Below are positions 4,490-35,700 of a stretch of DNA of 64,000 nucleotides, piece by piece. Numbering within the stretch: the stretch's first letter is position 1; each line of letters opens with the position of its first letter. This DNA is from Candidatus Adlerbacteria bacterium. GTDB lineage: Bacteria > Patescibacteriota > Minisyncoccia > Phycocordibacterales > SBAW01. The position numbers were made by a program, and so were the translations under genes. The stretch covers positions 34,353 to 98,352 of the forward strand of contig CAINNF010000017.1 in assembly GCA_903851045.1 (NCBI GenBank), written 5' to 3'. Under the pieces are notes generated by a model. It was not told the DNA's origin. It made no database searches and was given only the letters and a program-made list of their open reading frames with translations.

Positions 4490-5098
4490 ATGCGGACACG
4501 GGCACAGTGGGTCATTGGTGTCGACGAAGCGGGGCGCGGACCCCTGGCCGGACCAGTCGCGGTCGGTGTCGTGCTCGCGCCCAAAGGATTCGATATCAAA
4601 AAGGCATTCCCCGGTGTTGCTGACTCCAAGAAGCTTTCTGAGAAAAAACGAGAAGCGATCTTTTCGATGCTCGAACGGTGGTCGGATGACGATGTTAGAT
4701 ATGCGGTCGTGTTCGCATCTGCGAAGACGATAGACGGTAAGGGGATCAGCGCTGCTATTCGCGAGTCGGTGGCTCAAGGGGTGCGCATGCTCGCGCCGAA
4801 CGCACGCGACGGGTGTGTGCTGCTCGACGGGTCGTTGCATGCACCTGCAGCGTATACGCAACGAACGATCATCAAAGGTGACGCGACCGAACCGATCATC
4901 TCGCTCGCGTCAATCGCGGCGAAAGTGACTCGCGATCGACGTATGAAAAAGCTCGCTCAAAAATATCCAGTCTATGGGTTCGAGCGGCATAAAGGCTATG
5001 GCACAAAGGCGCACTATGCGGCGCTGCAGCAGCATGGGTTATCCCCAGAACACCGCACCACCTACCTTACAAACGTTTTGCCTCGCATACAGAAGTGA
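4490..5098 (+). CDS. rnhB: ribonuclease HII
   Basis: GVDEAGRGPLAGPV N-terminal motif and overall RNase HII length/organisation. Confidence 0.9.
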   Translation: MRTRAQWVIGVDEAGRGPLAGPVAVGVVLAPKGFDIKKAFPGVADSKKLSEKKREAIFSMLERWSDDDVRYAVVFASAKTIDGKGISAAIRESVAQGVRMLAPNARDGCVLLDGSLHAPAAYTQRTIIKGDATEPIISLASIAAKVTRDRRMKKLAQKYPVYGFERHKGYGTKAHYAALQQHGLSPEHRTTYLTNVLPRIQK

Positions 5099-5193
5099 AG
5101 TATAGTGAAATTTGCGTTCGGGGGTGTCGTACAAAACGTAAAAGCTCTATCAAAAAGAGCTCTCGATAACACCACAAGATAAGGGAGTCCGCC

Positions 5194-5457
5194 GTGCCGC
5201 GAGCATTGTCTGCACTAGAACAAATCGAGCATTTTGTCGATCAAGATCTACTCCTAGAAGTGCTGGGGGGTCGGGGGATCATGAGGGCCTGCGTCGCATG
5301 TGTGCACCGGGGTGATTGTGGATCGGAGACTGACCAGCTCGGTCTGTGCGAATTCTACGATCTGGACCTGCGAGATCCGATCAAGACAGAACAGAGTATC
5401 GAAGCGGCGCTCGTTGCCCCTCGGTGTCCTGAGCCTGTGTTGGCGGTCGCCGCCTGA
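5194..5457 (+). CDS. short DUF177/YceD-like protein (87 aa)
   Basis: GTG start at 5194 with AGGGAG RBS 6 nt upstream. Cys pattern CVACV...C...LC...PRC plus acidic D/E-rich segment loosely matches the C-terminal half of YceD, which normally precedes rpmF. A strong terminator follows. Confidence 0.4.
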   Translation: MPRALSALEQIEHFVDQDLLLEVLGGRGIMRACVACVHRGDCGSETDQLGLCEFYDLDLRDPIKTEQSIEAALVAPRCPEPVLAVAA

Positions 5458-5512
5458 AGTGCAGTGTTCGTCAGAACGTGCCCAAACCATCTTCGCCTCT
5501 ATCGTCCCACGT

Positions 5513-5553
5513 AACCCCTTCCTGGTCTATCCACGGGAGGGGTTTCTTTTTTT
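5513..5553 (+). terminator. rho-independent terminator upstream of rpmF
   Basis: 10-bp stem aaccccttcc / gggaggggtt (one G-U) with a 12-nt loop, followed by tctttttttaa. Confidence 0.65.
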
Positions 5554-5577
5554 AATAGACTATGGTACATTCGGTCC

Positions 5578-5817
5578 ATGGTAGTCCGAATGAGACATAC
5601 GAGGGCGCACACTGCGAACCGACGTTCGCACCATGCGCTCAAGGCCCAAACGCTCGCCAAGTGCGAGTGTGGAGCGACGCGTGTGTCACATCGCGCCTGC
5701 CCAAGCTGTGGGCGTTACCGTGGGCGTGTGGTCGTCGACAAGGTCAAACAGGCCGAGTCGAAGGCGGCGAAGAAGAGTGCGAAAGGTGGGAGCAAGAGCG
5801 AGGCATCGAAGAAGTAG
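5578..5817 (+). CDS. rpmF: 50S ribosomal protein L32 with Lys-rich C-terminal extension
   Basis: RHTRAHTANRRSHHAL plus CxxC...CPSC zinc-ribbon spacing typical of bL32. Basic C-terminal tail KVKQAESKAAKKSAKGGSKSEASKK. Confidence 0.8.
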   Translation: MVVRMRHTRAHTANRRSHHALKAQTLAKCECGATRVSHRACPSCGRYRGRVVVDKVKQAESKAAKKSAKGGSKSEASKK

Positions 5818-5875: not shown

Positions 5876-6772
5876 ATGGCTAACAGGCACCTCTCACGGT
5901 CGATCGTCCTCCAAACACTCTTCGAGTGGGACTTTCGGAATTGTTCCCCTCAAGACACCGAGGAGGTACTGCTTCGCAACATCGAAGAGTTCGCACCCAA
6001 TGCATCCGACATCGCTTTCATGGAGGATCTGTTGAAGGGTACGGTCGCTCGAAAAGATGATCTTGATCTTGTCATAGAGAAGGCCGCTCCGGAGTGGCCC
6101 CTTTCGCGTATAGCGCCGGTCGACCGTAACGTGCTCCGGCTTGGGCTCTATGAGCTCCTGTTCGCCGATCGCGACAAGGTACCAGCGAAGGTTGCCATCA
6201 ACGAAGCTATCGAACTTGCGAAAAGTTTCGGTGGCGAGAACAGCGGCCGGTTCGTCAACGGTGTTCTTGGTGCGGTCTACAAAGAGCTCGGTGAACCCGG
6301 TAAGGACGAGACCTCGAAGAAGAAGAAAAGCGTGCCTTATGAAGAGATGCCACAGGAACGCCTCGTGGGAGCGGTGGTCTATTGTCGCAAGAGCGGGGAA
6401 CTGCAGCTCGCCCTTGTACACGACATCTTCGGACACTGGACGCTCTCGAAGGGGAAGCTCACTCCCGAAGAAACTCCCGAAGATGGAGTGGTGCGAAAGA
6501 TAAAAGAGGAGATAGGACTCGATGTGAAGCCGGTCGAGCGACTGGGCGAGAACGAGTATATCGCCTCCGACCCAGAGGTTGGCAAGAAGCGCAAGCACGT
6601 CATCTACTTCCTTGCCGAATCCGAACATACCCCGATCGAACTCGCGAAGAAAGGCGGACTCGATGATGCGAAATGGTTCCCCGTATCCCAAGCGACCGAA
6701 CTCAACTTCTATGACGACATGCTCCCGATAGTCACGAAAGCGATCCAGAAATTATTACCCGGTACCGACTAA
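5876..6772 (+). CDS. nusB: NusB (transcription antitermination) fused to a C-terminal NUDIX hydrolase domain
   Basis: Residues 1-140 match NusB (RSIVLQTLFEWDF, VLRLGLYELLF, VAINEAIELAKSFGGENSGRFVNGVLG). Residues ~160-298 carry a perfect Nudix box GKLTPEETPEDGVVRKIKEEIGL (Gx5Ex7REUxEExGU). Confidence 0.85.
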   Translation: MANRHLSRSIVLQTLFEWDFRNCSPQDTEEVLLRNIEEFAPNASDIAFMEDLLKGTVARKDDLDLVIEKAAPEWPLSRIAPVDRNVLRLGLYELLFADRDKVPAKVAINEAIELAKSFGGENSGRFVNGVLGAVYKELGEPGKDETSKKKKSVPYEEMPQERLVGAVVYCRKSGELQLALVHDIFGHWTLSKGKLTPEETPEDGVVRKIKEEIGLDVKPVERLGENEYIASDPEVGKKRKHVIYFLAESEHTPIELAKKGGLDDAKWFPVSQATELNFYDDMLPIVTKAIQKLLPGTD

Positions 6773-6844: not shown

Positions 6845-7552
6845 TTGCAACTAACTCAAATGGCTAAAGACCTTAGTTCGTTCGAAGAGATAATCAACGT
6901 ACCATTTACCGATCAGCTACTGCTCCGTCAGGCATTCACGCACCGCTCGTATCTGAACGAACATCGTGGCGAGGTCGTCGGGCACAACGAACGTCTTGAG
7001 TTCTTGGGAGACGCGGTGCTCGAGCTTGTCTCGACGCATTTTTTATATGTACGATTCCCTGAGAAGGATGAGGGTGAGCTGACCGCCTATCGTGCGTCGC
7101 TCGTGAACGCAGTGACCTGCGCCGAGGTCGCGACGGACCTGGGTATGAACGACTACCTGTTGCTCTCCAAAGGAGAGGCGAAGGACCAGGGTCGTGCGCG
7201 CGGCGTGCTCCTCGCGAACGCCTTCGAGGCGCTCATCGGTGCTATCTATATAGACCAAGGCTACGAGACCGCACAGGCGTTCATCGCGCGCTACCTGCTC
7301 CCCAAGATTGACGACATCGTCCAGAAGCGCCTCTGGCAGGATGCGAAGTCGACCTTGCAGGAAAAGGTGCAAGAGCACGACGGCGTGACGCCGATTTATG
7401 CGGTGCTCAAAGAGACCGGCCCTGACCATGACAAACACTTCCTCGTCGGTGTCTTTGCGCGTGACACGAAGATCGCCGAAGGCGAAGGCAAGTCCAAACA
7501 AGAAGCCGAACAATCCGCAGCGAGAGCAGCGCTCGAACTACGGGGGTGGTAA
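6845..7552 (+). CDS. rnc: ribonuclease III
   Basis: ERLEFLGDAVLELV catalytic signature plus C-terminal dsRBD. Confidence 0.9.
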   Translation: MQLTQMAKDLSSFEEIINVPFTDQLLLRQAFTHRSYLNEHRGEVVGHNERLEFLGDAVLELVSTHFLYVRFPEKDEGELTAYRASLVNAVTCAEVATDLGMNDYLLLSKGEAKDQGRARGVLLANAFEALIGAIYIDQGYETAQAFIARYLLPKIDDIVQKRLWQDAKSTLQEKVQEHDGVTPIYAVLKETGPDHDKHFLVGVFARDTKIAEGEGKSKQEAEQSAARAALELRGW

Positions 7553-7606
7553 AAAGTATTTTGTGCCTTTATAGTACGAGCGTGTGTATGTTGAATGGAG
7601 GAGTAG

Positions 7607-7825
7607 ATGCCTAAACCACTGTTGTTCTTAGCGAGTTCCTTGATCCTGGGGCTGTGTGCCACTCTTGTGCTGTACTGCATGGGCGCGAGCGAACGATTGA
7701 TCTTTATCGTGTCGCTGTCTGGGCAGGTCGTGGGGGTAGGAGGAGTCATCGGTATGTACTTTCTTGAGAGACTGAGTGCTTCGTGGATCGGGCGCCTGTT
7801 CAATCAATGTTTCGGGAGGAAGTAA
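7607..7825 (+). CDS. small hydrophobic membrane protein (72 aa)
   Basis: Two predicted TM segments. Stop overlaps the next start (TAATG). Confidence 0.4.
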   Translation: MPKPLLFLASSLILGLCATLVLYCMGASERLIFIVSLSGQVVGVGGVIGMYFLERLSASWIGRLFNQCFGRK

Positions 7826-8400
7826 TGGACGTGCATCTGTATGCGAGTCATCATGACTTGCCGTATTGGGGAGGCGCTCACCCGTCGTGGGGACGATTCG
7901 TGCCGCACGACATGCGTGACTGGGCATTCAACACCGGAGAGTCTGCGGAACCCCTGCAAGATGCGCTTAAGGGGACCGTGTGGGTATTCTTGGAAGCCCT
8001 GCATCGGATGCCTCGTCCGCTACTTGAAGCACATGTTTCGGTCGGCGTACCAATTAGCGATGGCAACGAAGTTATGATTATGTGTCCACATCGCATGTGG
8101 GTGCAGATCATTGCTCCGTCAGCGGTACCTGTTCCTTCTCGCGAAGCGAGCAATGATGCGTTGGCGTGCGTGTGGGGGAGGGATAATCGTACCTATCGCT
8201 TTGGGAACCTTCTCTCTTCTCAAGAGTGGGTGGAATTTCAAACCCTCGGTACGGTCGAGGAGCGTATCGCCTTCGTCCAAGCGTTCTTCGAGCGTCAACT
8301 GCACCGGGTGCAGCAGCTCCGGATGGAAAGCATCCTCGATCTCTCGAGTGCAGCAGCTGCGCATGCGAAAGCTGTGCAAGCCATCTTGGCGACAGGTTGA
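7825..8400 (+). CDS. hypothetical protein (191 aa)
   Basis: Start re-placed at ATG 7825 (MDVHLYASHH...), overlapping the upstream stop. A terminator follows. Confidence 0.5.
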   Translation: MDVHLYASHHDLPYWGGAHPSWGRFVPHDMRDWAFNTGESAEPLQDALKGTVWVFLEALHRMPRPLLEAHVSVGVPISDGNEVMIMCPHRMWVQIIAPSAVPVPSREASNDALACVWGRDNRTYRFGNLLSSQEWVEFQTLGTVEERIAFVQAFFERQLHRVQQLRMESILDLSSAAAAHAKAVQAILATG

Positions 8401-8407
8401 TGGTCAT

Positions 8408-8445
8408 GGTCGCGAGCACCTAACAGGCGCTCGCGGCCTTTTTTC
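8408..8445 (+). terminator. rho-independent terminator
   Basis: ggtcgcgagc / gctcgcggcc stem followed by ttttttc. Confidence 0.6.
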
Positions 8446-8526
8446 TTGCTATCTGCAGCAAAAGTGGTATTTTCTGTCAAGATGTTTTTGGGGTGCACGC
8501 CCCGTTTTTCTTTGGAGGTAAAGACG

Positions 8527-8883
8527 ATGCGTAAGCACATCTCGGCAATGGTTATTGCTCTGGCTTCTCTGGCGGGAGCAGTTCCCTCAGTACAGGCTCA
8601 GCTGGGCGGGCTTGATGCGGGATACGTATCAATTGCAATTACGGCGATAGATTCGGCCCCGGAGTCTTCGCTTCTGTGTGCTGTTCGTGTCTGCTGGGTG
8701 GTGGATGGGTATCGCAAGGGTCGAGTCGTGGCACACGAACTGCGAACTCAAGCGAGAACAGTCGAGTTCTCTGCTAGGGATTGGGCTCTGGAGCAGGGAA
8801 CTACTCGTGTGTATCTGCCTACAAGTCCTGGTTGGTTCGAGGAGATGGGTCGAAATGCAGGGACTGGTGGGGCTCGTTTCTGA
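8527..8883 (+). CDS. small secreted protein (118 aa)
   Basis: Internal ATG 8527 gives MRKHISAMVIALASLAGAVPSVQAQ, a Sec signal peptide with AQA cleavage motif. The track N-terminal extension is probably spurious. Confidence 0.5.
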   Translation: MRKHISAMVIALASLAGAVPSVQAQLGGLDAGYVSIAITAIDSAPESSLLCAVRVCWVVDGYRKGRVVAHELRTQARTVEFSARDWALEQGTTRVYLPTSPGWFEEMGRNAGTGGARF

Positions 8884-9021
8884 GTGATGAGATACGGTAT
8901 TTGTAGTATAACCATGCTGTGTTCGATGTTCGAAGGAGGGTTGTGTGACCAGGTTTCTTTGGACCCACCTGGACTCGATGGGCTCGTGTCATGACGTTGT
9001 ATCGGGGTTAACAGCGATACG

Positions 9022-9054
9022 TGGCTCATTCCTCGGGATGAGCCATTTCTTTTG
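9022..9054 (+). terminator. rho-independent terminator
   Basis: tggctcat / atgagcca stem followed by tttcttttgg. Confidence 0.6.
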
Positions 9055-9068
9055 GTACAATAGGGAGG

Positions 9069-16334: not shown

Positions 16335-16430
16335 CGCTGGTTGACGCGTTCTCTAGGTCCTGTTACTTTGTCTATACGCTGCGCCTCAGAGCGGTTACAG
16401 CTGAGGTTTCTTTTCAGGAAGAAACACCAC

Positions 16431-17207
16431 ATGGCTTTCGCGTTCATCAAGAACCTCGCTGGCCTCAAGGCGAGCGGAGTCGTTCAGGCCGGTGTCGAAG
16501 CGTATGTACGGTGGGACCCCAAAGGTTCAACCGCAGCCGAGCTTTTGACCATGGAGCAGCACCTGGACGTGTTGAACCAGCAGGTTTCCGAAGCACGGCA
16601 AGCCTTCAATAAGGAGAGGCAGGAGGCGGTCGCAATCGTGGCGCTGCACAACCAGCGCCTGGCGGCGGCCGAATTGCTGCAGAAGCAGATAGATGCGGCG
16701 ACCGACCCGGCGGTGAAAGCCGAGCTTGAAAAGAGTCTGGGCACACAGCTCACTTTGATCGAGCGGATGGCCCCGGATGTCGAGCGCGAGCAGGCTGAGG
16801 CAGCCGACGCCAAGGATGTGCTTGAGACGCTCGATGCCTCCTTCCAGGAGGCTGGACAGAAGCTGCTCGAGGGTCGTGCGCAGCTCGAGCAGGCAGAGCG
16901 TGACATGAAGCGTGCCGTGACACAGCGCGAATCGGCTGAGCGGCAGGCAGAAGCCGCTCGCCGAGCAGCCGGTCTGACGCAAGTCACCAGCGGACTGACG
17001 GTGGCTTTGAAAGCGATGCAGGACGCGGCGGCTAAGGATCTCGTGTCGGCGGATGCCGCGGCAAACAAGGCAAAGCTGTTGCGGCAGACCAAGCCTGAGC
17101 AGGACGACCCGCATATCGCGGCCGCGATGGCTGCGGTGTCCGGAAAGCCGGTGGCGGCCACGTCGCTGGCGGGGCGCCTCGCTGCGTTGAAGGAGAGGGC
17201 GGCCTGA
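16431..17207 (+). CDS. PspA/IM30 (phage-shock protein A / Vipp1 / ESCRT-III-like) family protein
   Basis: ATG 16431 with AGGAAG RBS. N-terminal amphipathic MAFAFIKNLAGLKA, a WDPKG...ELLTMEQHLDVLNQQVSEAR block paralleling PspA EDPQK...LMIQEMEDTLVEVR, then ~200 aa of Ala/Glu/Gln/Arg coiled-coil. 258 aa. Confidence 0.55.
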   Translation: MAFAFIKNLAGLKASGVVQAGVEAYVRWDPKGSTAAELLTMEQHLDVLNQQVSEARQAFNKERQEAVAIVALHNQRLAAAELLQKQIDAATDPAVKAELEKSLGTQLTLIERMAPDVEREQAEAADAKDVLETLDASFQEAGQKLLEGRAQLEQAERDMKRAVTQRESAERQAEAARRAAGLTQVTSGLTVALKAMQDAAAKDLVSADAAANKAKLLRQTKPEQDDPHIAAAMAAVSGKPVAATSLAGRLAALKERAA

Positions 17208-18356: not shown

Positions 18357-20408
18357 CTAGGCTAGTTCGAAATCCAGCGTGCGAGCCGAGAGGTCGGCAG
18401 CGACCAACTTGACTCGCACCCTGTCTCCAAGCGTAAATCGCTTCTTCGTACGCTCTCCCACGAGAGCGTATTTTTTTTGGTCATGAGTGAAGAAGTCGCT
18501 CCCGAGCGAACGGACGCGCACCAAGCCCTCAGCCGAACTTTCTTCATCTTCGACATAGATACCCCAGTCGGTGACGCCCGAGATGATGCAGTCGAACTCA
18601 CGGCCTACTTTATCGAGCATATACTCGACCTGTTTGTAGCGGATGGAGTCGCGCTCGGCCTCGACCGCCTTGGCCTCTTGTGCACTGGCGTTGAGGCACA
18701 TGCGCTCCAGGCCGCCGAACTCGCGGCTGGTGAGCGGGTGACCGTCGAGGTGCGATGCGACGATGCGGTGCACGAGCAGGTCGGGGTAGCGGCGGATAGG
18801 GGAGGTGAAGTGGGTGTAATACTCGAACGCAAGCCCGAAGTGACCGATGTTCTTGGTCGAGTAGATCGCCTTCGCCATGGAGCGAAGGGTGGCGGTGCGG
18901 ATAAGATGCTCCTCGGGCTTACCCTCGATCTGCTTGAGCAAGCTCGCAATATCTCGAGCAGATATTTTTTTCTTTGGTGTGTGGGTCGCTCCGGAGTGGG
19001 ATGCGTCCCGCGGAGCTTTAGCGGAGTGGGAGAAGTCGTATCCGAGCGCACGGACGAACGTGCCGAGGTCGTCGATACGGTCTGCCTTGGGTTCGTCGTG
19101 GATGCGGTAGAGGAAGATGGGCGCCTCTTGTGCTTGGTTGGAAAGTTTTGAAATATATTTCGCGACCTCACGGTTGGCGAGCAACATGAACTCCTCGATA
19201 AGCGAGTTGGTCTCGATGCGCTCCTTGCGCACCACTTTGAGAGGCTTGCCCTCCTCGTCGAGCACGAAGCGGACCTCATTGTCGCCGAAGTCTATCGCGC
19301 CCTCTCGCTCGCGACCTTTCTTGAGGATGCGCGCGATGGTGCGCAGATGGTTGAGCTCGGTGAGGTATGGGCCATCCTGCTTGTCGAGGATCTCCTGCGC
19401 CTCTTCATAGACGAAGCGCTTGTTGGAGCGGATGATAGTACGCTCGAACTTTCGCTCCAGTACTTGGCCGGAGGAGGTGATATGAAAGATGGCTGAGAAG
19501 GCGAGTCGGTCCTCGTCCTGTTTGAGACTACAGACGTTGCCCGAGAGCTCGTGGGGGAGCATCGGGATGGTCGCGTCGACAAGATAGACGGAGGTGCCGC
19601 GCTTCACCGCCTCGTCGTCCAGCCGTGTGCCGGGGCGCACGAAGAAGCTCACGTCGGCTATGTGGATACCGATCTCGAAGATGTGGCCGCCAAGGTCGCG
19701 GATAGAGAGTGCATCGTCGTAGTCTTTGGCGTCCGCCGGGTCGATAGTGAAGGTGGTTCGGTCGCGGAAGTCACTTCGGTTCTTTGCCTCGCTTTCGATC
19801 GTGTGGGCATAGTTTCGCTCGATCTCCTTCGCCTCGCGTGCGACATCGTCGGGGAAGGAGGTCGCGAAGCCGTGCTCGAGCACGATGGCGTTCATCTCGG
19901 TACGATGGTCGCCGGCGGTGCCGATGATCTGTGTCACCGAGCCAGTCGGGTCAGCCTTGCCGTCGAACGCCTCTAACTTCACGAGCACCTTCATCCCGAC
20001 CTGCGCGTCGTCGGGGACCGAGAGGAGTTTGAAGGTGCGATACATGCGGGCATCGTCAGGAGTGGCGCTCCACACCGCGCCCTGTTTTTTGAGCACACAG
20101 ACGAACTCGCTGCGTGAGCGCTCCTCGACCTTCTTGACGACCCCTTTGGGGCGGGGGAAGAGACCGGTCAACTCGACCGACACGATGTCGCGGTTAAGCG
20201 CACCACCAAGATGCTCCGGCGCGACCTCTATATCTTGCAAAGCCGAGACGCCCTCCTTCGCCGAGGCTTCGAAGGGCAAGTACCCCACGCCTTTTCGCGT
20301 GACCGATATACTGCCTGTTACGAGCTTTTTCTGCGCCGGATTTCCCTGGTGCCGAGAAGCTCCTGTGCTGGGGCCGCGGCCCTTACCTGGAGTCATTGAT
20401 ACAGACAC
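18357..20408 (-). CDS. rnr: ribonuclease R (RNase II family 3-prime to 5-prime exoribonuclease)
   Basis: RNB-domain signatures HFGLAFEYYTHFTSPIRRYPDL and YLVDATIPMLPHELS. Cold-shock and S1-like flanks. 683 aa. Confidence 0.9.
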   Translation of the reverse strand: MSVSMTPGKGRGPSTGASRHQGNPAQKKLVTGSISVTRKGVGYLPFEASAKEGVSALQDIEVAPEHLGGALNRDIVSVELTGLFPRPKGVVKKVEERSRSEFVCVLKKQGAVWSATPDDARMYRTFKLLSVPDDAQVGMKVLVKLEAFDGKADPTGSVTQIIGTAGDHRTEMNAIVLEHGFATSFPDDVAREAKEIERNYAHTIESEAKNRSDFRDRTTFTIDPADAKDYDDALSIRDLGGHIFEIGIHIADVSFFVRPGTRLDDEAVKRGTSVYLVDATIPMLPHELSGNVCSLKQDEDRLAFSAIFHITSSGQVLERKFERTIIRSNKRFVYEEAQEILDKQDGPYLTELNHLRTIARILKKGREREGAIDFGDNEVRFVLDEEGKPLKVVRKERIETNSLIEEFMLLANREVAKYISKLSNQAQEAPIFLYRIHDEPKADRIDDLGTFVRALGYDFSHSAKAPRDASHSGATHTPKKKISARDIASLLKQIEGKPEEHLIRTATLRSMAKAIYSTKNIGHFGLAFEYYTHFTSPIRRYPDLLVHRIVASHLDGHPLTSREFGGLERMCLNASAQEAKAVEAERDSIRYKQVEYMLDKVGREFDCIISGVTDWGIYVEDEESSAEGLVRVRSLGSDFFTHDQKKYALVGERTKKRFTLGDRVRVKLVAADLSARTLDFELA

Positions 20409-21335: not shown

Positions 21336-22133
21336 ATGAATTTTCATGTCGTTACCTTATTCCCCGAAGTGGTGGACGCTTATGCACAGGCGTCTATTCT
21401 TGGTCGTGCTCAAGAAGAGAAGAAGTTGAGCGTGAAGACGTACCAGCTGCGGGATTTTGTAACGAACCACGTAAAACCGCTTCGCGGCCACGTGGCAGGT
21501 ACGTGGGGATACAAGAAGGTCGATGAGCGGCCGTATGGTGGTGGCCCAGGGATGGTACTGCAGGCCGAGCCTTTCATCCGCGCCATTGAGACAATCCAAA
21601 AAAAGATCAACAAAAATAAACGTAGTCAGACTGCGTTAGTTGGGAGTGGGCGGAAGGTGCGTGTGTTGGTGACTGCTGCGGGTGGTAAGACGCTTACCAA
21701 CGCGTATGCTAAGGCGCTCACGAAAGAGGAGAACGTCATCATTTTGTGCGGACGATACGAGGGGATCGATGAGCGGGTGAAGAAGGTTGCGACTGCTTTG
21801 GGTGCGAAGGTTGAGGAGGTTTCGGTTGGCCCCTACATCCTCACTGGGGGTGAGCTGCCCGCGCTCACTATCATCGATGCGGCTGCTCGCCAGATACCGG
21901 GAGTACTCGGTAAGTTCGAATCTCTGGAGGAGGGAAGGGTTGCCAGCCACGAGATCTACACCCGACCGGAGGTCTTAGAGTGGAAGGGGAGGGACGGCAA
22001 GGTAAAAAAGTATCGAGTCCCGAAGGTCCTTTTGTCCGGCAACCACGCCAAAATGGACGAATGGAAGGCCAAAAAGCGCTCAATGGGGGCAGATGTGGAC
22101 AAACAGGCCCCAAAAGGCTTGACTCGCCTCTAA
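21336..22133 (+). CDS. trmD: tRNA (guanine37-N1)-methyltransferase
   Basis: MNFHVVTLFPE start, YGGGPGMV and CGRYEGIDERV SPOUT-knot motifs. Confidence 0.9.
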   Translation: MNFHVVTLFPEVVDAYAQASILGRAQEEKKLSVKTYQLRDFVTNHVKPLRGHVAGTWGYKKVDERPYGGGPGMVLQAEPFIRAIETIQKKINKNKRSQTALVGSGRKVRVLVTAAGGKTLTNAYAKALTKEENVIILCGRYEGIDERVKKVATALGAKVEEVSVGPYILTGGELPALTIIDAAARQIPGVLGKFESLEEGRVASHEIYTRPEVLEWKGRDGKVKKYRVPKVLLSGNHAKMDEWKAKKRSMGADVDKQAPKGLTRL

Positions 22134-22458: not shown

Positions 22459-25400
22459 ATGCGAGAGAAAAAGTATTTCAGCCGGTTCCGTGCGCCGCGT
22501 GTCGAGACGCCGAATCTCGTCGAGGCACAGGTCGAGTCCTATAAGGAGCTTCTGAAGGGTGGCGTGAAGGATATCTTCAAGGAGTTCACTCCTATCAAGG
22601 ACTACTCCGGCAAGAAGTTCGACCTTGAGTTCGTGAAGATCGAGCTCGGTGAGCCGAAATTCGACGAGCACTACGCCAAGGAGCAGAAGATGACGTTGGA
22701 TATGCCGCTACGCGGTATCGTTCGGTTGCGCAACAAGACCACCGGCTCCGAGAAGGAGCAGGAGATCTTCCTTGCGGACTTCCCCGTGATGACCGACCAC
22801 GGTACCTTCATCATCAACGGTGTCGAGCGTGTCATCGTCCCCCAGCTGGCACGCTCCTACGGTGTCTTCTTTACCGCCGAAGAGGTGAAGGGTAAGCGTC
22901 ACTTCGGCGCGAAGCTTATCCCGGCCCGCGGCGCATGGATCGAACTCGAAGCTGAGTCTGACGGCGGTCTCGCTGTCCGTATCGACCGTAAGCGAAAGTT
23001 CCCCGCGCTCTCCCTCCTGCGCGTGTTTGGTGCGACCTCCGACGAAGATCTCAAGAAGCTCTTTGCCGACTCCGAGCACGGACTTCGCTGGATCGAAGAC
23101 GCGCTTTCCAAGGATGTGACCAAGTCCGTCGATGATGCGTACGTCGAGATCCACAAGCGTTTGCGTGATGGTGACTTGGCGACCGTTGCGAACGCTCGCG
23201 AATACATCAACTCCATCTTTAGTGAGGACCGCTACGACCTTTCCCGCGTCGGGCGCTTCCGCTTCAACCAACGCTTCGACCTCTCGCTCGAAGAGGCTGA
23301 CCTCGCACGCAAGACACTCTCGCTCGCTGACCTTGTCATCGTCTTCAAGCACATCCTTGAGCTCGAGAACGACCCTGATGCGGTCGAGGACAATATCGAC
23401 CACCTCGGCTCGCGCCGCGTCCGCTACGTCGGCGAGATGCTCCAGCAGCGCCTTCGTGTCGGCCTCACCCACATGAAGCGCAACATCCAGGACCGCATGT
23501 CGACGATCGACACCGATGCGTCCATGCCACAGCAGTTCGTTAACCCGCGACCACTGCAGGCCCGTATCAAAGAATTTTTTACCACCAACCAGCTCTCCCA
23601 GTTCATGCAGCAGGAGAACGCGCTCACCGAGCTCGAACACCTGCGAACGCTCTCGGCACTGGGTCCCGGAGGTCTCACGCGCGAGCGCGCGGGCTTCGAG
23701 GTTCGCGACGTCCACCCATCCCACTACGGACGCCTCTGCCCGATCCACACCCCTGAAGGCCCGAACATCGGCCTTATTCTGCGTCTCTCGACGTTCGCCC
23801 GCGTCAACGCGTTCGGCATGATCGAGACGCCGTACGTCAAGGTTGAGAATGGTCATATCACGAAAGAGATCGTCTATCTCAACGCTGCAGAAGAAGAGAA
23901 GCGTTCTATCGCACACGGTGCGGTCAAGGTCGTCAACGAGAAGTTCGTCGATGAGTTCGTCGATGCGCGTCTCAACAGCGTCCCGACACGCGTCGCCGCG
24001 AAGGATGTCGAACTGATGGATGTGACGCCGGAGCAACCGTTCTCGGTCGCAACCTCAATGATTCCGTTCCTTGAGCACGACGACGCGAACCGTTCGCTCA
24101 TGGGTTCGAACATGCAGAAGCAGGCGACCCCGTGCATCCTTCCTGAGGCGCCGCTCGTCGGCACCGGTATGGAGGAGCGTGCTGCAAAGGACACTGGCCG
24201 CCTCATCATCGCGAAAGAGGATGGTATGGTGGTCCAAGCAGACGGCAAGCACATCATCGTTCGCAACCAGAAGGGGAAGGACACCGAATATCCGCTCATC
24301 AACTTCGTCCGTACCAACGGCTTTACCGCGCTCCATCAGCGACCAAGTATCTCGGTCGGCACCGCGGTCAAGAAGGGTGACCTGCTCGGCGACACCTCGT
24401 CGACCGACGGCGGCCAGCTCGCACTCGGGCAGAACTGCCTCGTCGCCTTTATGTGTTGGTCGGGTGCGAACTACGAAGACGCCATCATCATCTCTGAGCG
24501 CATGGTCAAGGACAGCAAGTTCTCCTCTATCCACATCGAGGAGTTCGTCTGTAACGTGCGCGACACCAAGCTTGGCGCCGAAGAGACCACTCACGATATC
24601 CCGAACGTCTCCGAGACGAAGCTCCGCAACCTCGACGAGGACGGCGTGGTTCGTGTCGGTTCCGAAGTGCGCCCAGGCGACATCCTGGTCGGCAAGATCA
24701 CACCGAAAGGCGAGACACAGCTCACTCCTGAGGAGCGACTCCTTCGTTCGATCTTCGGTGACAAGGCGCGCGATGTGAAGGACTCGTCCCTTCGCATGGA
24801 GAATGGCAAGCGCGGTCGCATCATCGGCGTCAAAGTCTTCTCCCGCGAAGCGGGCCACCAGCTCGAAAGCGGCATCATCAAGCGCATCCACATCGAGGTC
24901 GCGCAGCTGCGCAAGGTCTCGGTCGGCGACAAGCTCGCAGGTCGTCACGGCAACAAGGGCGTTATTTCCCGCATCCTGCCCGAAGAGGATATGCCATACA
25001 CCGCGGACGGTCGTCCGGTCGACGTCATCCTGACACCGCTGGGCGTGCCGTCTCGTATGAACCTCGGACAAATTTTGGAGCTGCACCTCGGACTCGCTGC
25101 GAACACCCTTAACTACCAAGCTATCTGTCCGCCGTTCGCGGGAGCGACCGAAGTCGAGATCCGCGAGGAGTTGAAGAAGGCCGGCTTTAACGAAAGCGGC
25201 AAGATGCAGCTCTTCGACGGTCGTACCGGCGAGGCGTTCGAGCAGGACATCTCGGTCGGCTACATGTACATCTTGAAACTCCACCACATGGTCGAGGACA
25301 AGATCCACATGCGCTCGATCGGACCGTACTCTCTTATCACCCAGCAGCCACTGGGCGGTAAGGCACAAGGCGGCGGTCAGCGCTTCGGCGAAATGGAGGT

Positions 25401-28400
25401 GTGGGCACTGCTCGGCTACGGCGCGTCATATACGCTGCGCGAGATGCTCACGATCAAGTCCGACGACATCAGTGGTCGGTCCGCAGCCTTCGACTCTATC
25501 GTGCGCGGTGAGCGCATCAACCACCACTACGCGCCGGCATCCTTTAACGTGCTCCTCCACACCCTGCGCGGTCTCGCGCTCGACGTCGAGCTGATGCGCG
25601 GCGGCAGTGCGGTCACCAACGCGCGCAAGACGCCGGGTGCCGAGGCCTCCGACTTCGACTCGGTGCGCATCCGACCAGCATCCCCTGAACGCATCTTGGA
25701 ATGGTCGCACGGCGAGGTCACCAAGCCTGAAACCATCAACTACCGCACCCAACGTCCAGAGAAGAACTCGCTCTTCGACGAGAAGATCTTCGGTCCTGAG
25801 CGCGACTATGAATGTTACTGCGGTAAGTATCGCGGCATTCGCTACAAGGGTATCGTCTGCGAGAAGTGCGGTGTCGAGATCACTCGCTCAATAGTCCGTC
25901 GCGAGCGCATGGGTCACGTCGACCTGGCGGTCCCGGTCGCACACGTATGGTTCCTTCGCGCTATTCCGTCGCGTCTCGCCATGGTGCTCGGCATCTCTGG
26001 GGGCGATCTCGAGAAGGTCGTCTACTTCGCGGGCTACATCGTCAACCAGGTTCACCGTGAGGAAAAGGAGCGCATCATCGGCGAACTCGAAGCTGAGTAC
26101 AAGTCGAAGATGAAGAATCTCCAGGACGAGAAGTCGAAGGACAAGATGAAGGACCTCTTCCTCGATGCCAAGCGCGACATCGACTCTATCGTCATCGGTG
26201 CGGTACTCGACGAGCCACGCTACCACCGCTATGTCATCAAGTACGGCGCGATGTTCGAGGCCGGTATCGGTGCCGAAGCGCTCTACAACCTGTGCAAGAA
26301 CCTCGATGTGAAGCAGATGATCGCCGACACGGTCACGGCGCTCGAAAAGGCCGGTGCCGCAGAGCGCGAGAAGCTCGGCAAGCGACTCTCGATCCTGCGC
26401 GGTATGGCGAAGTCCAACATTCGCCCCGAGTGGATGTTCCTGACCCGCATCCCGATCATCCCGCCAGGCCTGCGACCGATGGTCGCGCTCGACGGCGGCC
26501 GTCATGCGACCTCCGACATCAACGACCTCTACCGACGCGTCATCAACCGCAACAATCGTCTCAAGAAGCTCATCGAGATCCATGCGCCGGACGTCATCCT
26601 CCGCAACGAGAAGCGCATTCTGCAGGAAGCGGTCGACACGCTCATCGACAACTCTATCCGCCATGGCGGCGCGGCGTTCTCTGCGACGACCCAGGCGCGC
26701 ACACGACCGCTCAAGTCGCTCTCCGACAACCTCAAAGGTAAGCACGGTCTCTTCCGTCAGAACCTGCTGGGTAAGCGCGTCGACTACTCGGGTCGCTCTG
26801 TCATCGTCGTCGGTCCAGAACTTCGGCTCAACCAGTGCGGTCTGCCGAAGCACATGGCACTGGAACTCTTCCGTCCGTTCGTCATCGGCAAGCTCCTCGA
26901 GAAGGAACTCGCCTATAACATCCGCGGCGCGGGTCGTCTTATCGACGAAGGCGTACCGGAGGTATGGGCGATCCTCGAAGATGTCATCCGCGACAAGTAC
27001 GTGCTGCTTAACCGCGCACCGACCCTCCACCGCTTGGGTATTCAGGCCTTCCAGCCGATCCTTATCGAAGGGAACGCTATCCAGCTGCACCCGCTCGTCT
27101 GTTCGGCGTTCAATGCGGACTTCGACGGCGACCAGATGGCCGTCCATGTGCCGCTCTCACCTGAGGCGCAGGCGGAGGCTCGCGAGATCATGTCCGCGAC
27201 CAAGAACATCCTCAAGCCGGGTAACGGCGAGCCGGTCATCGCATCCAAACTGCTCGACATTCTGCTCGGTACGTATTGGATGACCAAGGAAGTGAAGGGC
27301 GCAAAGGGCGAGGGTCTCGCATTCTCGAGTCCGAACGCCGCCATTCTCGCGTACGACCACGGTCGCGTCGGCTTCCAGGCGAAGATCCGTGTGATGCCGA
27401 GTGAGAAAGAGAAGTATGCCGCGTTCGGCAATCAGCTCTTCGAGACGACCGCAGGCCGACTCCTCTTCAACACCGTCTTCCCGAACGACTACCCATTCGT
27501 CAATACTGCGATCGACAAGAAGGGTCTCGCGAAACTCGTCGACAACCTTATCGACCGTTATGGACTCGAGAAGATCCCGGATACCATGGACAAGATCAAG
27601 AACTTCGGTTTCCGTTACGTCACCCAGTCCGGTATCACCTGGTCGCTCGACGACATACGTGTCCCGGCCGAGAAGGATGGCATCATCATCGAAGCACAGC
27701 GCAAGTCGCACGAAGTCGTCGAACACTGGGAGCAAGGCTTGCTCTCCGAGGAAGAGCGCTATCGCATGAACATCGAGATCTGGCACGACGCGAAGTCACA
27801 GGTCGAGAAGTGCATCCCAGCGACGCTCCCGATCGACGGTTCGGTCTCCGACATGATCAAGTCAGGCGCCCGCGGCTCTATCGGACAAGTGACGCAGATG
27901 GCCGGCATGAAGGGTCTCATCTCATCACCATCGGGTGATACGATCGAACTCCCGGTGACGAAGTCCATGAAGGAAGGTCTCTCGCCACTTGAGTACTTCC
28001 TCACGACGCACGGTTCGCGCTCGGGCCTCGCCTCAACGGCGCTCTCGACCGCGAAGGCCGGGTACCTCACGCGCCGACTCTTTGACGTCGCACAAGACAT
28101 CGTGGTCTCCAGCGACGAATGCGGCACGAAAGAGGGTCTCACGATCCACCGTGTCTCCGCATCCGGCATCGGTACCTTCCTTGCGAAGAACATCGAAGGT
28201 CGCTACTTGGCAGAGGATGTCATGCACGACGGTAAGCTCATCTATAAGAAGGGGCAATTCCTGCTCGGACCGGACGCTCGTCATATCGAAGAGCTCGGTG
28301 TGCAGTCGGTATACGTTCGCTCTCCTGTAGGTTGTAAGTCACACCGCGGCATCTGCGGGCACTGTTATGGTGCGGACCTCTCGACCGGCAAGCCTGTCGC

Positions 28401-29301
28401 GCTCGGTGAGGCGGTCGGTACGGTCGCCGCACAGGCTATCGGCGAGCCGGGTACCCAGCTCACGATGAACATCAAACACGCCGGCGGTGCGGCATCCGCA
28501 GCCGGTGACGTGACCCAGGGTCTCCCGCGCGTCGAAGAAATCTTCGAGCGCCGCTCTCCGCGCAACCCAGCGGTCGTTTCGACCATCTCGGGTGAGGTTG
28601 TCGAGATCCGCTCGACCGACAAGGAGAAGGTCATCTGCATCGCACCGGACCTAGAGCATCGTGGTAAAGGCAAGAAGGACGTCTTCGAGTTCGAATGCCA
28701 CCTGCGCCGCTTGCCGCTCGTGAAGGTGGGGGAGAAGGTCACGAAGGGTCAGATCATCACCGATGGTTCTGCCGACCTCGCCGACCTCTTCGCCTACGCC
28801 GGTAAGGAAACGACACAGGAATACATCATCACCGAGGTCCTCAAGATCTATGAGCTCCAGGGAGCAAGTATCTCCATCAAGCACCTCGAAACGATCATCC
28901 GCCAGATGTTCTCGCGCGTGAAGATCGTGAAGTCGGGCGACACGGAGTACTCCAAGGGTGATGTCGTCGCCGAGGCTGACATGACCTATGCCAACAATGC
29001 GGCAGAGGCTGCAGGCGGCGAGAAGGCGACCACCGAGCCGCTCGTCATGGGCATCCTCGATGTCTCACTCTCACGCCCGAGCTTCCTTTCGGCAGCATCC
29101 TTCCAGAACACGACACGCATGCTCATCCGTGCCTCGATGTACGGCTCGGTCGACAAGCTCGAAGGTCTCAAAGAGAACGTCATCATCGGCCGCCTCATCC
29201 CAGCCGGCACCGGCTTCAAGGGTTCACCAAAAGAAAAGTTGGTCAACCGCTACGCCCCCGTCGACCATGCGGACGTGGTGACGGAGAAGGAGACGGTCTA
29301 G
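22459..29301 (+). CDS. rpoBC: DNA-directed RNA polymerase beta and beta-prime subunits fused in one 2280-aa ORF
   Basis: The N-terminal ~1060 aa is RpoB ([77 protein letters not shown]). It continues without a stop through ...[49 protein letters not shown] into RpoC (zinc finger [22 protein letters not shown], catalytic [14 protein letters not shown]). Confidence 0.9.
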   Translation: [2280 protein letters not shown]

Positions 29302-30381: not shown

Positions 30382-32016
30382 ATGAGCGACCAGATACAAG
30401 AAATTAAGGACCGGCTGAGCATCGTTGATGTGGTTGGGCAGTATGTACAGCTCAAGCGAGCGGGGAGGACGATGACGGCTCGGTGCCCCTTTCATAAAGA
30501 GCGGACGCCGTCGTTCCATGTGTCGCCTGAGCGGGGTACCTACATCTGTTTTGGGTGTGGCGAAAAGGGTGATATCTTCTCGTTCGTCGAGCGTATCGAA
30601 GGGGTGGATTTTAAGACGGCACTGGAGGAGTTGGCGGCGAAGGCGGGGATCAAACTGGAGCGTCGTCATGGTCAGGAGGCGGAGCATAAAGAGAAGGACG
30701 AGAAGCTGCGCGAAGTGTGTGAAGCGGCGACGCAGTACTACGAAGCACAGCTCGCGAAGCGGCCGGATGTGTTGGAGTATCTGAAGAAGCGTGCGGTCAC
30801 CGACGAGACCATCAAACACTGGCGCATCGGCTACGCGCCTGCGCACTGGCAAGACGTGAGCGATCATCTAGTATCGCTGAAGTTCTCCAAAGACGACATT
30901 GCGGACGCGGGACTCGCGGCGAAGTCAGAGCGCAAGCCGGGCGAGATATATGACCGCTTTCGCGGTCGTATCATGTTCCCGATCAGTGATGCGCAGGGGA
31001 GAGTTATCGCGTTCTCGGGGAGATTTTTTGAGGATGTGGTGAGCGAAGCCCGCAAAGCTCCTTCGGAGCCGCGGGCCGAGCCCGCGAAATATGTGAACAG
31101 TCCCGAGACGTTGCTTTTTAAAAAGTCGCGAGTCATGTACGGGTTCGACAAGGCGAAGAATGCGATCCGCAAAGCTGACTGCGTGCTGCTCGTCGAGGGT
31201 CAGTTCGACCTTATCATGTCTCACCAGTCAGGACTGCCGTTCGCGGTCGCAATTTCAGGCACGGCGCTGACCCCTGAACACCTGTCACTTTTGGGGCGAC
31301 TGACAAAACGCCTTATTTTGGCGCTCGATGCGGACGATGCGGGTGTGCGTTCGGGGCTCAGGAGCGCTCAGATGGCGCTCCAGGTTGGGTTCGATGTAAA
31401 GGTGCCAACCTTCCCACACGGTAAGGATCCGGCTGATGTCGCGAAAGAAGACCCCGAGGCGCTCAAACAAGCGATCCGGGCATCGAAGACTTCGGTCGAG
31501 TTCTTTCTCGAGGCACTGCGCTCGGGTATCAAAGATGAACGTGCGTACAAAAAGGTGGTCGAAGCGCAGATACTGCCGCTTATCGCCGCGATGCCGAGCA
31601 AGATCGAGCAAGAACACTTCATCCGTATCGTCGCAGGCAAGATCTCCGTCTCGGAACTTGCGGTGCGCGAAGAGGTAGCGAAACGAAAGGTGTTGCCGCT
31701 GGAGATGGAGGATGTTGGCACGGTATCTCCGGCCAAAGAGAGCGCACCGACCGAGCTCGACCCCATAGAGAAGAAGGCAGCCATGCTCCTCTTCACCTTT
31801 GCACCCGATTCTCCCCAGGCAGTTAAGTTGGTAACCTTGCTGGGTGAAGAAAAGATCAACACCTTACGCGATCGCCTCCAGGCCGAGGCCGAGGTGTGGC
31901 GATTCAAGTTCGAAGCGGAGCTCGCTGAACATTCACCTGATGTGATCGCAGAGGACATGCTCGCAGATATCGAACGGACCGTGACACGGCAGCGGTTGAA
32001 GATGCGGTTTCGATAA
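30382..32016 (+). CDS. dnaG: DNA primase
   Basis: Zinc finger CPFHKERTPSFHVSPERGTYICFGCGEKGD, TOPRIM motifs LLVEGQFDLI and ALDADDAGVRSG. 544 aa. Confidence 0.9.
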   Translation: MSDQIQEIKDRLSIVDVVGQYVQLKRAGRTMTARCPFHKERTPSFHVSPERGTYICFGCGEKGDIFSFVERIEGVDFKTALEELAAKAGIKLERRHGQEAEHKEKDEKLREVCEAATQYYEAQLAKRPDVLEYLKKRAVTDETIKHWRIGYAPAHWQDVSDHLVSLKFSKDDIADAGLAAKSERKPGEIYDRFRGRIMFPISDAQGRVIAFSGRFFEDVVSEARKAPSEPRAEPAKYVNSPETLLFKKSRVMYGFDKAKNAIRKADCVLLVEGQFDLIMSHQSGLPFAVAISGTALTPEHLSLLGRLTKRLILALDADDAGVRSGLRSAQMALQVGFDVKVPTFPHGKDPADVAKEDPEALKQAIRASKTSVEFFLEALRSGIKDERAYKKVVEAQILPLIAAMPSKIEQEHFIRIVAGKISVSELAVREEVAKRKVLPLEMEDVGTVSPAKESAPTELDPIEKKAAMLLFTFAPDSPQAVKLVTLLGEEKINTLRDRLQAEAEVWRFKFEAELAEHSPDVIAEDMLADIERTVTRQRLKMRFR

Positions 32017-32736: not shown

Positions 32737-35700
32737 ATGGCCAGACGAGTAGTAGAAGAAATATTTACCGGTGCGACGGTGCCGTACACATCGTATGACT
32801 CCACGAAGATAGTCACCGGGGATCTTATCGAGCAGTACATCGGCGCGAATCCGTCCGACAAATATATTGGTCCAACTCGTGTTGGGCGTGATTCGACGGG
32901 GACCATCTATGGCATGGGTCGTCCGTTCGAGGCGACCGCCGGTGTAGCGGGCGTATTTCCCCATGTTGTCCGTTGGGCGAATAAGTCTGGATACTATACG
33001 ACCGGTACGGTCGCTGTCTCTGGTACGAGCGTCACTGGTAGCAGCACGGCATGGCTCACCAATGGCGTGCCCATCGGTGCGACCATCGGCTTTGGCACCA
33101 CCGACCCGACGCAGGTGACCACCTGGTATACCATCAACGCTATTACGTCGGATACAGCGATTACGATAGGCACTTCGGCCGGTACTATCGCGGGCGGTAC
33201 ATCCTTCGTTATCAACAAGACCTTGCAGACCGACTGGGTATTTTTGGGAGACGGTTCTGCGGCTGCGGCAACCCGCAAGATACAGCTCTATGAGTTCAAC
33301 CGAAGCACCTCTGCTTTTACTGCAAAAGGATATGCGACACTTAACTACCCCTATGCCGGCACACAGGGCACCTATGTGCTGCACGGCCTTAAGGTGTCCT
33401 ATCAACCCTATACCACGGGTACTGTCCAATCCGGCGGCATGACGCCCAATGGTGCCTATTACAGCACTGGCACCGTTGCTGTCACGACTACGGCTGTGAC
33501 AGGCACTGGTACTACGTTCACTGCCGCTATGCAGGGTATGATGATCGGGTTTGGCTCGACCAACCCAGATTCCATCGCTACGTGGTACTACATCCAGACG
33601 TTTGGTTCGACCACAGCCCTCACACTTGCGACTTCAATTGGTGCAACTGCGATACCTGCAAGTACGCCCTATGTCATAGCGACCATATACAATGTCGGTA
33701 CCGTTGCGGTATCGGGTACGGGCGTCACGGGTACCGGCACCACCTTCTCCAACACCGGTATCTACAATGTGGCAGGTATGGCCATCGGCTTTGGCTCTGT
33801 GAACCCCGGCCAGATTACCACGTGGTATACCATCCAAACATGGGGCTCGAGCACGTCACTCACACTCTCAACATCAGCAGGGAGTCTCGGCTCTGGTCTC
33901 TCATATGTAATTGTTATCATGGCAGGTACGGCGTCGGTGTCGGGCAACGCGGTCACTGGTGTTGGTTCAAGCTTCTCGACCACGACCCAGGCGGGTATGC
34001 TCATTGGTTTTGGCTCGGTCAACCCCGCTTCGATAAGTAATTGGTATGTGATTAGTGCGGTCGGATCGACGACCGCGATGACTCTGGTGACCAGTCCGGG
34101 CACGGTCGGAGCCGGTCCATATGTCATCGTTATCGGTTCGATCGTTGGTTCGGGGACTTTGTGGTCCACGAGTAGAATCGCGGTCGGTTCGCGCATAGGC
34201 TTTGGTTCGACCGACCCAACACAGATATCCACCTGGTACTACGTCAACGCTATCGACAGCGATACTATCATGAATATCCAAGCGTCCGCGACAGCGACCG
34301 GTGTCGGAGGCGCCATGGTCGCGCTCTCGCTCGCCGCGAGTACGCCGTATGTGATAGAAGATCTTAAGATAGTCACCACTGCCACGAACGGCACCACTGC
34401 CACGAACGGTGGGCTATTCGTCGCCATGGGCCTTTCCTATGGCGATTTTGTGAACAGCGGCACCACTATCTCTGCCGCAACGATGATCGACAAGATAAAA
34501 GCGAACTACTGGCTCGGTGACGCAGCCACCTCGAACAACACCACCGCGTGCGCCTGTGTTATCGACGACTTCGTCTCGTGGACGACGCAGTACCGCTACG
34601 TCATCGACGGTGCCGGCGGTACCAGCGCAAGAGTCTACAAATATAATATTCGCAGCGGTCTATCCATACCCACCAGTGGTACCAACGGTAAGGACATCAC
34701 GGCGTTCATGTTCAGCACGTTGGCCCAAACGACGGCCAACAACCTACCTGCTATCGCTGCCAACAACAGTGTCGCATGCATCGCCACGCTCAACCATGGC
34801 CCTGGCGCAGGTGTGAAATGTCTCTATTTCATGAGTATTGCAAAGATACATCGTGCCAGAATTAGCGACATTACCACCAACGCATCGACCTGGTGGACAG
34901 ACTCCATGGTCGAAATACCGACTGGCGGTGCGGCAACCTACACCGCCTCGAGCGTGCTCAACCAAATTGCCGTGGACACCCAGATAGATCGCCTCGTCAT
35001 CACCACCAGCGGTGCCGCCACGTCGCCCGCCTCGAACCGCGCGTATGTCACCCAGTACAATGCGGTCAATAGTCCGATGGATCATATGTTCTTGGTCGAA
35101 TCCAGACAGCTCGACCAGTCATCCGAAGATGGCGCGGCTGCTCCGCACCCGAGCCTCATCGCCAGTACCTTCCTGTCGCTTTGGTCAGAAGGGGGGATAA
35201 CCTATATCGCTAAGACTGGCGCTGCTGCTACGATAAGTCAGATATATGCACTGCCTCTGGGTGCTGACTGGGCGTACGCGAACGGGACGGTCAACCAACG
35301 TCTGATAACCCCGGCGCTCGCCACCACGAATGCGGTCAAACTGGTGCGTGTGTATGTGAACAGTCAACCCTTTGCGGGGAGCGCGAACGTCTCGTCTCCA
35401 GGCAACCTGACGATTCCAAGCGAACCGTACCGACTACTCTATCGAACATCTGGTATCAGTGACAACTCGGGGACATGGACGGCGCTCACCGACTATACGG
35501 GGGATCTCTCGGGAGCGACCCCGGGGTCACAGATACAATTCGCGATCGAGTTTCGTACTATCGGCACGTTCTGTATTCCTAATAGAGTCTATAATCTCGC
35601 CTGTGTGTACGAAGATAATACGACCGACAGTCACTACCAACCGTCCGCTGGCCTCTCTTCGGTCACGACCAAGACGTTCGCATGGCGCTTTGCGACCGCG

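Follow-up and report, generated by a model that had tools for sequence, protein, structure and literature searches.

NusB is ordinarily fused to a Nudix domain in a large Parcubacteria/Paceibacteria lineage, and the fusion has repeatedly lost Nudix-box residues

Results

A single reading frame encodes NusB and a Nudix domain

The 64-kb stretch of DNA that was analysed (the window) carries a gene in which NusB is joined, through a flexible charged linker, to a Nudix-fold domain (Table 1). The gene lies in a run of genes on one strand, in the order RNase HII, L32 (rpmF), the fusion, RNase III (rnc) and a short SMC-like ATPase. No second NusB gene and no second Nudix gene was found in the window, which holds one of each.

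Table 1 Features of the NusB-Nudix locus, in coordinates of the window
Feature	Position	Strand	Details
rnhB (RNase HII)	4490-5098	+	PF01351; in 70/80 loci
rpmF (L32), upstream neighbour	5578-5817	+	PF01783; upstream in 77/80 loci
NusB-Nudix fusion CDS	5876-6772	+	298 aa plus stop; single ORF without stop or frameshift
NusB domain, residues 7-136	5894-6283	+	seven helices; PF01029, TIGR01951
Flexible charged linker, residues 139-159, GEPGKDETSKKKKSVPYEEMP	6290-6352	+	pLDDT <50 at 141-151
Nudix-fold domain, residues 164-280	6365-6715	+	ApnA-hydrolase / aq_158-like; PF00293, Foldseek
Nudix box, residues 193-215, GKLTPEETPEDGVVRKIKEEIGL	6452-6520	+	canonical except motif position 16
Lys208 codon AAG	6497-6499	+	at the 'RE' glutamate; RppH E53 equivalent
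rnc (RNase III), downstream neighbour	6845-7552	+	PF14622, PF00636, dsrm; immediately downstream in 79/80 loci
Short SMC_N-family ATPase, 756 aa	9069-11339	+	after RNase III in most related loci

Both domains score well above the curated thresholds of their profiles. The Pfam NusB family (PF01029) matched residues 7-136 with 123.9 bits against a cutoff of 23.1, the NCBIfam nusB equivalog model (TIGR01951) gave 127.4 bits against a cutoff of 88.35, and the Pfam NUDIX family (PF00293) matched residues 164-280 with 62.4 bits against a cutoff of 21.1. The first 138 residues match the two NusB models and align over their full length, and the NusB domain aligns end to end with the NusB chains of T. 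maritima, Aquifex and E. coli, including the 6tqn/6tqo sequence. Canonical NusB is a single domain of ~140 aa, whereas the fusion adds a further domain of ~140 aa on a flexible linker. An AlphaFold2 model of the fusion, built with 59 homologues (mean pLDDT 86), contains two confident domains, an N-terminal one of seven helices (H4-21 to H121-138; block-mean pLDDT mostly 85-96) and a C-terminal alpha/beta one, separated by a linker of low confidence (residues 141-151). The pTM of 0.50 for the whole model indicates that no fixed packing of the NusB and Nudix halves is predicted.

A preliminary description of this DNA had proposed a complete NusB followed by a Lys-rich linker of ~20 aa and a complete NUDIX domain, and the profile scores and the seven-helix model bear out both domains. 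Its account of the linker holds for the window protein, which has a KKKK run, and does not extend to the family: among 33 diverse fusions the linker measures 7-41 aa and varies in charge and composition. A conserved Lys-rich RNA-binding linker was ruled out on this ground. Neither a stop codon nor a frameshift, which the same description had named as grounds for rejecting the fusion, separates the two domains, and the reading frame is intact in 353 full-length orthologues from independent contigs, which rules out a chimera or a frameshift introduced by sequencing. The same protein (P0001, 100% identity) occurs on 8 public contigs. The NusB-Nudix fusion is real.

The Nudix half resembles ApnA hydrolases and RNA 5'-pyrophosphatases

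In fold similarity (Foldseek), the Nudix half matched Aquifex aq_158 (3I7U) best, with a TM score of 0.89, an rmsd of 1.7 A and 26% identity, and the other top matches were M. tuberculosis Rv2985 and M. smegmatis MutT1, Thermus Ndx1, Chlamydia CT771 and human NUDT2. A phmmer search of the PDB returned the same set, again with aq_158 as the best match and with the C. elegans and human Ap4A hydrolases among the closest sequences. Dcp2 and RppH were more distant than the ApnA hydrolases in both sequence and fold. RppH, NUDT2, MutT1/Rv2985, Ndx1 and CT771 belong to the same Nudix subgroup as the window domain by fold and sequence, and the domain is, as judged from these similarities, of the diadenosine-polyphosphate-hydrolase / RNA-5'-pyrophosphatase type. 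The substrates of RppH and of the Nudix ApnA hydrolases are polyphosphate-linked nucleotides and RNA 5' ends. By the NCBIfam PRK00714 models, the best of which gave 22.2 bits against a cutoff of 139, the window protein is not an RppH orthologue.

The nearest relative, aq_158 ('Omnivore RNA pyrophosphatase'; 3I7U/3I7V), removes 5' triphosphates, diphosphates and m7G, NAD, FAD and Np4 caps from RNA (2026; PMC13145063). It shares with the window protein several Tyr/Trp positions and the W-x3-K-G segment; it differs in being a stand-alone enzyme of 134 aa and not part of a NusB fusion, and in its canonical box, which reads REVWEE as against RKIKEE in the window protein. The aq_158 mutant E51A, in which a glutamate of the Nudix motif is replaced, is inactive (PMC13145063), and E51 corresponds to E212 of the fusion in the phmmer alignment. 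In ApnA hydrolases the adenine is contacted by a conserved Tyr (Y87 in human NUDT2); Y228, Y244 and Y279 are conserved in the fusions and align with Tyr residues of aq_158 in the phmmer alignment. RppH, which decaps Np4-RNA, is counted with MutT1 among the Nudix Ap4A hydrolases (PMC7705103).

Proteins that keep the Nudix fold for binding and not for hydrolysis (NUDT21/CFIm25, NrtR and DBC1) offer a second likeness to the fusion family, and the Nudix domain of NrtR was among the top Foldseek matches. That some Nudix proteins are not enzymes is well recognised (PMC5389931); NUDT21, which binds Ap4A and for which no substrate has been found, provides a precedent in RNA processing (PMC7705103). 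These proteins show no specific sequence kinship to the fusion, and the window protein, unlike many of its orthologues, keeps most of its box residues.

The coupling of antitermination to RNA 5'-end metabolism that had been suggested on first inspection of the sequence gains support from the identity of the nearest relative, an RNA 5' pyrophosphatase and decapping enzyme. Its premise of an attached hydrolase is weakened by a lysine in the Nudix box and by loss of the box in the family, both described below, and no evidence was found that points to the (p)ppGpp-type turnover offered as an alternative.

The Nudix box of the window protein carries a lysine at motif position 16

Eight of the nine specified positions of the Nudix box consensus (Gx5Ex7REUxEExGU) are intact in the window protein, which has G193, E199, R207, E211, E212 and G214. 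The ninth, motif position 16, is Lys208 instead of Glu, and the exact match claimed in the preliminary description is wrong at this codon. The Nudix motif of E. coli RppH spans residues 38-60, which places E53 at motif position 16, and E53A is the standard catalytically dead mutant of that enzyme (PMC6061791). The 'RE' glutamate is thus essential in RppH, whereas the window protein has Lys at the same position. Since Lys208 occupies the position of the inactivating RppH mutation, canonical catalysis is probably impaired in the window protein by the RE-to-RK change. Only one catalytic glutamate is lost, and residual or altered catalysis may be possible because E199, R207, E211, E212, G193 and G214 are retained.

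The lysine is common among close relatives. Residue 208 was K in 87, E in 32 and G in 1 of the best 120 relatives, among which G193, E199, E211 and E212 were invariant and R207 and G214 were each present in 119/120. Across 348 fusions the same position was E in 171, K in 114, V in 19, A in 17 and R in 10. Comparison of K-type with E-type sequences yielded no convincing compensating residue for K208, the sole acidic gain being at residue 198, and the differences between the two types look like clade signatures.

The fusion is widespread in Patescibacteria

A single-sequence search returned at least 8000 candidates, of which the best 120 (73-100% identity) were examined; all 120 contained both Pfam domains, at ~300 aa each. 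A profile built from 34 divergent fusions listed a further 120 relatives, again all fusions. Thus 240/240 relatives listed, a sample biased toward the kin of the query, are fusions of ~300 aa, and the annotation is always plain "NusB". Their source names are Adlerbacteria, Nomurabacteria, Paceibacterota, Parcubacteria, Minisyncoccia or 'Patescibacteria group', the taxon labels being those of record titles and source names, and the groups with the fusion comprise Adler-, Kaiser- and Nomurabacteria and Paceibacterota. Among species-representative genomes, a relative was encoded in at least 569, among 600 pattern matches listed. The best 80 matches in species-level (GTDB) genomes all cover residues 1 to ~294 and are all from Patescibacteria. 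On this survey, NusB normally takes the form of the fusion in a large Parcubacteria/Paceibacteria lineage of ultra-small bacteria.

Many metagenome-assembled genomes with CA* prefixes (loci L001, L002, L006 and others) are titled 'uncultured Candidatus Saccharibacteria bacterium'. Their fusions are 63-84% identical to Adler-/Kaiserbacteria proteins, for which reason the title is probably an unreliable placeholder taxonomy.

When the Nudix half alone was searched against 1.84 billion representatives, 148 clusters were obtained at E <= 1e-10. Both domains were present in 55 of the best 150 matches, with Nudix identity down to ~30%; the remainder were mostly fragments, together with ~25 complete stand-alone Nudix proteins of ~140 aa.

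Box residues are lost repeatedly while the Nudix domain is retained

Stand-alone relatives and fusions differ in their Nudix boxes. A canonical box was found in 24/29 stand-alone relatives vs 5/33 diverse full-length fusions (Fisher p = 1e-7), and E199, E211 and E212 were all Glu in 27/29 vs 14/33 (Fisher p = 3e-5). In the stand-alone proteins the box residues are the most conserved positions of the domain (0.86-1.00), whereas in the fusions most fall to 0.27-0.79, with E212 at 0.88. The positions conserved at 0.85-1.00 in the fusions are instead D183, F185, W188, T189, K192, Y228, Y244, W267, F268, L276 and Y279. A partly overlapping set (F185, T189, P233, G236, Y244, G261, F268, L276 and D281) is conserved specifically in the fusions and is weaker in the stand-alone relatives.

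The five box residues read E-R-E-E-E in 154 of 348 unique full-length fusions (44%) and E-R-K-E-E, as in the window protein, in 104; in 68 (20%) a ligand Glu or the Arg has been lost, in many different ways. By parsimony on a tree of the NusB half only, the losses require at least 42 changes, a count that may be inflated by the use of UPGMA. Lineages with a broken box nevertheless keep W188, K192, W267 and Y279 at 0.99-1.00, and Y228 is also conserved in them. The ratio of Nudix to NusB divergence outside the box was 1.15-1.18 in broken-box vs 1.24-1.25 in canonical lineages, and mean identity across the fusions was 58% for the Nudix half vs 66% for NusB. One very divergent orthologue (P0187), which lies in the conserved synteny, has no NUDIX entry in the precomputed Pfam list.

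As judged from these conservation patterns, the Nudix domain is under steady purifying selection irrespective of hydrolytic ability. Hydrolysis would then not be the property that selection maintains, because the box has been lost repeatedly under unchanged constraint on the domain. The 44% of fusions with a canonical box are more than neutral decay would leave, which suggests continuing selection for catalysis in some lineages. A protein-protein surface or the core of the fold could account for the conserved residues just as well.

The gene order around the fusion is conserved

Among 80 related loci, the order from RNase HII to the SMC-like ATPase recurs in practically all those whose length allows it to be seen. 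Divergent members keep it: RNase III lies immediately downstream in the divergent fusion locus L086, and the neighbourhood is the same for the very divergent fusion P0187; for another very divergent fusion, P0249, the upstream neighbours are conserved and the fusion sits at the contig end. A scan for promoter- or terminator-like sites between rpmF, the fusion and rnc found none, the counts being at or below the shuffled expectation and hence uninformative.

Spacing within the run varies. The 480-bp gap between RNase HII and rpmF in the window (5099-5577), which contains an 87-aa ORF (5194-5457) with no Pfam or Rfam match, ranges from ~30 to ~1,600 bp among related loci. A second spacer of ~1.5 kb (7553-9068), with a 205-aa ORF (7783-8400) that has no Pfam match, lies between rnc and the SMC-like gene. 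Many related loci have these genes almost side by side, which makes the spacer look like an insertion particular to this lineage. The SMC-like protein of the window (756 aa) is much shorter than a typical bacterial SMC.

Two of the stand-alone Nudix relatives whose loci were inspected, P0184 and P0174, genuinely stand alone and have unrelated neighbourhoods. A third candidate, P0136, was rejected as a contig-edge truncation followed by RNase III. In none of these three loci did a stand-alone Nudix relative adjoin a separate nusB gene. P0174 (locus L085, 6001-6453), which has a canonical box, lies amid phage-like genes (an integrase, a DNA methylase and a faint Rep_O match), which suggests that this Nudix subgroup is also carried on mobile elements.

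Discussion

NusB/NusE recognises boxA in rRNA leaders. The reading of the fusion that we favour, with a probability of about 0.4, is a NusB-tethered module that binds a nucleotide or RNA 5' end, in which hydrolysis would be ancestral and dispensable, and is probably impaired in the window protein. Within the antitermination complex, NusB would bring the tethered Nudix module to the 5' region of the nascent rRNA leader. The property under selection would be the ligand-binding pocket and not hydrolysis, and the most plausible ligand would be either the transcript's 5' end, as a polyphosphate or with a cap, or a related nucleotide. Hydrolysis may persist in the ~44% of fusions with a canonical box and would have been lost many times elsewhere. 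The tethered grip on the 5' end could keep the rRNA leader at the polymerase while its pairing partner is being transcribed, and RNase III, the product of the next gene, would then cut the paired leader. The domain identities, fold neighbours, distribution, synteny and the pattern in which residues are lost or kept are observed, whereas we infer what the ligand is, that the module is delivered to rRNA leaders and that RNase III is involved; delivery is argued from homology only, because the window contains no rRNA operon or boxA (an Rfam scan of all 64 kb gave 0 matches).

A precedent for such an arrangement comes from the E. coli rRNA antitermination complex (rrnTAC), into which NusB/E is stably integrated only with SuhB, a protein of the inositol-monophosphatase fold (PMC6614801). 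The complex boosts co-transcriptional RNase III cleavage, and a bridge between the rRNA 5' and 3' ends has been proposed (bioRxiv 10.64898/2026.03.17.712431). SuhB, which has a small-molecule phosphatase fold, is recruited to NusB/E-boxA, stabilises it and promotes RNase III processing, and the proposed grip on the 5' end would be functionally analogous to its stabilising role. The likeness is one of function: SuhB has an unrelated fold and is a separate polypeptide, whereas the Nudix domain of the fusion is tethered. In its most specific form the proposal is that the NusB of Paceibacteria captured an RNA-5'-end pyrophosphatase and repeatedly turned it into a non-hydrolysing clamp on the 5' end of nascent pre-rRNA, which would replace SuhB-type stabilisation and prepare leader-trailer pairing for RNase III. 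This fuller version is speculative, and we regard it as doubtful. If true, a 5'-end clamp would add both a new component and a new principle to the bacterial complexes that carry out rRNA antitermination and processing.

An alternative is that the Nudix domain is a working RNA 5'-pyrophosphohydrolase or decapping enzyme which NusB takes to boxA transcripts, where conversion of a triphosphate or cap to a 5' monophosphate would license processing or decay. In favour of such an enzyme, the nearest relative, aq_158, strips ppp, pp, m7G, NAD, FAD and Np4 from RNA, and the Nudix Ap4A hydrolases include, with MutT1, the Np4-RNA-decapping RppH. The intact 8/9 box positions, conserved in the close clade, the 154/348 fully canonical fusions and the adjacent RNase III gene also agree with it. 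Against these stand K208 at the position of the inactivating RppH E53A mutation, the low scores of the NCBIfam RppH models (22 vs 139 bits) and, in syntenic orthologues, the repeated loss of catalytic residues while the remainder of the domain stays as constrained as before, and we hold a tethered active enzyme to be unlikely, if still a serious possibility.

Somewhat less probable is a role as a pure protein scaffold, in which the Nudix fold would bind no nucleotide and would dock NusA, RNA polymerase, S10 or RNase III, doing a job like that of SuhB. That an enzyme-fold protein can be needed for stable NusB/E integration is shown by SuhB itself, protein-protein interaction is a known non-enzymatic role of Nudix proteins, and the positions conserved specifically in the fusions are weaker in the stand-alone relatives. 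The strictest residues (W188, K192, W267, Y279 and L246), however, are common to catalytic stand-alone proteins and fit a ligand pocket or fold core better than a new surface, and no fixed contact with NusB is predicted (pTM 0.50).

The domain might instead act on, or sense, free nucleotides such as Ap4A, Ap5A or 8-oxo-GTP near the polymerase, and so couple rRNA transcription to stress nucleotides without involvement of an RNA 5' end. Its nearest relatives entered the literature as ApnA hydrolases or 8-oxo-(d)GTP phosphatases, a signalling function has been proposed for Ap4A (PMC7705103), and NUDT21 binds Ap4A. An enzyme with a soluble substrate would gain little from a NusB tether, yet the fusion and its synteny are kept lineage-wide, and the loss of catalytic residues speaks against a sanitising role; we therefore hold this explanation to be improbable. 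An accidental join of a housekeeping Nudix, with the halves independent or the Nudix being lost, would accord with the predicted structural independence of the domains, the eroding catalytic residues and the one orthologue lacking a listed NUDIX domain, but is very improbable, since the domain is full length in 353/353 orthologues examined, diverges little more than NusB (58% vs 66% identity) at a rate unchanged after box loss, and holds a specific residue set at 0.94-1.00, an unchanged constraint that amounts to purifying selection.

As the preliminary description had supposed, no characterised NusB-Nudix fusion was found in the literature: papers containing both words have neither in the title or abstract, and a survey of the Nudix clan makes no mention of NusB. 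With two familiar domains and plentiful database sequences, the fusion is an uncharacterised variant of a known factor; thousands of entries annotated plain 'NusB' conceal the second domain. What makes it worth pursuing is that catalytic residues have been lost again and again with no change in constraint, together with the fixed pairing with RNase III, an enzyme that processes rRNA precursors. NusB is universal in bacteria, and nearly all that has been established about its partners comes from E. coli. In this case a very large uncultured lineage has welded onto it an enzyme-derived domain whose nearest characterised relative acts on RNA 5' ends. The loss of the box with retention of the domain is a natural experiment that points to a useful property other than hydrolysis, and active-looking and inactive-looking orthologues provide a matched set for biochemistry, with which hypotheses on the coupling of rRNA transcription and processing in minimal-genome bacteria become testable.

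Other genes in the window

The window is rich in genes for RNA processing and information transfer: besides RNase III, RNase HII and L32, it encodes an RNase R/II with an RNB domain (18357-20408, - strand), TrmD (21336-22133, + strand) and DnaG primase (30382-32016, + strand). Two further ORFs on the + strand, of 1,072 aa (32737-35955) and 288 aa (16341-17207), have no Pfam match at E <= 0.001. The rpoB and rpoC genes are also fused, as one ORF of 2,280 aa (22459-29301, + strand) in which Rpb2 domains 1-7 (residues 19-1046) are followed directly by Rpb1 domains 1-5 (residues 1065-2165).
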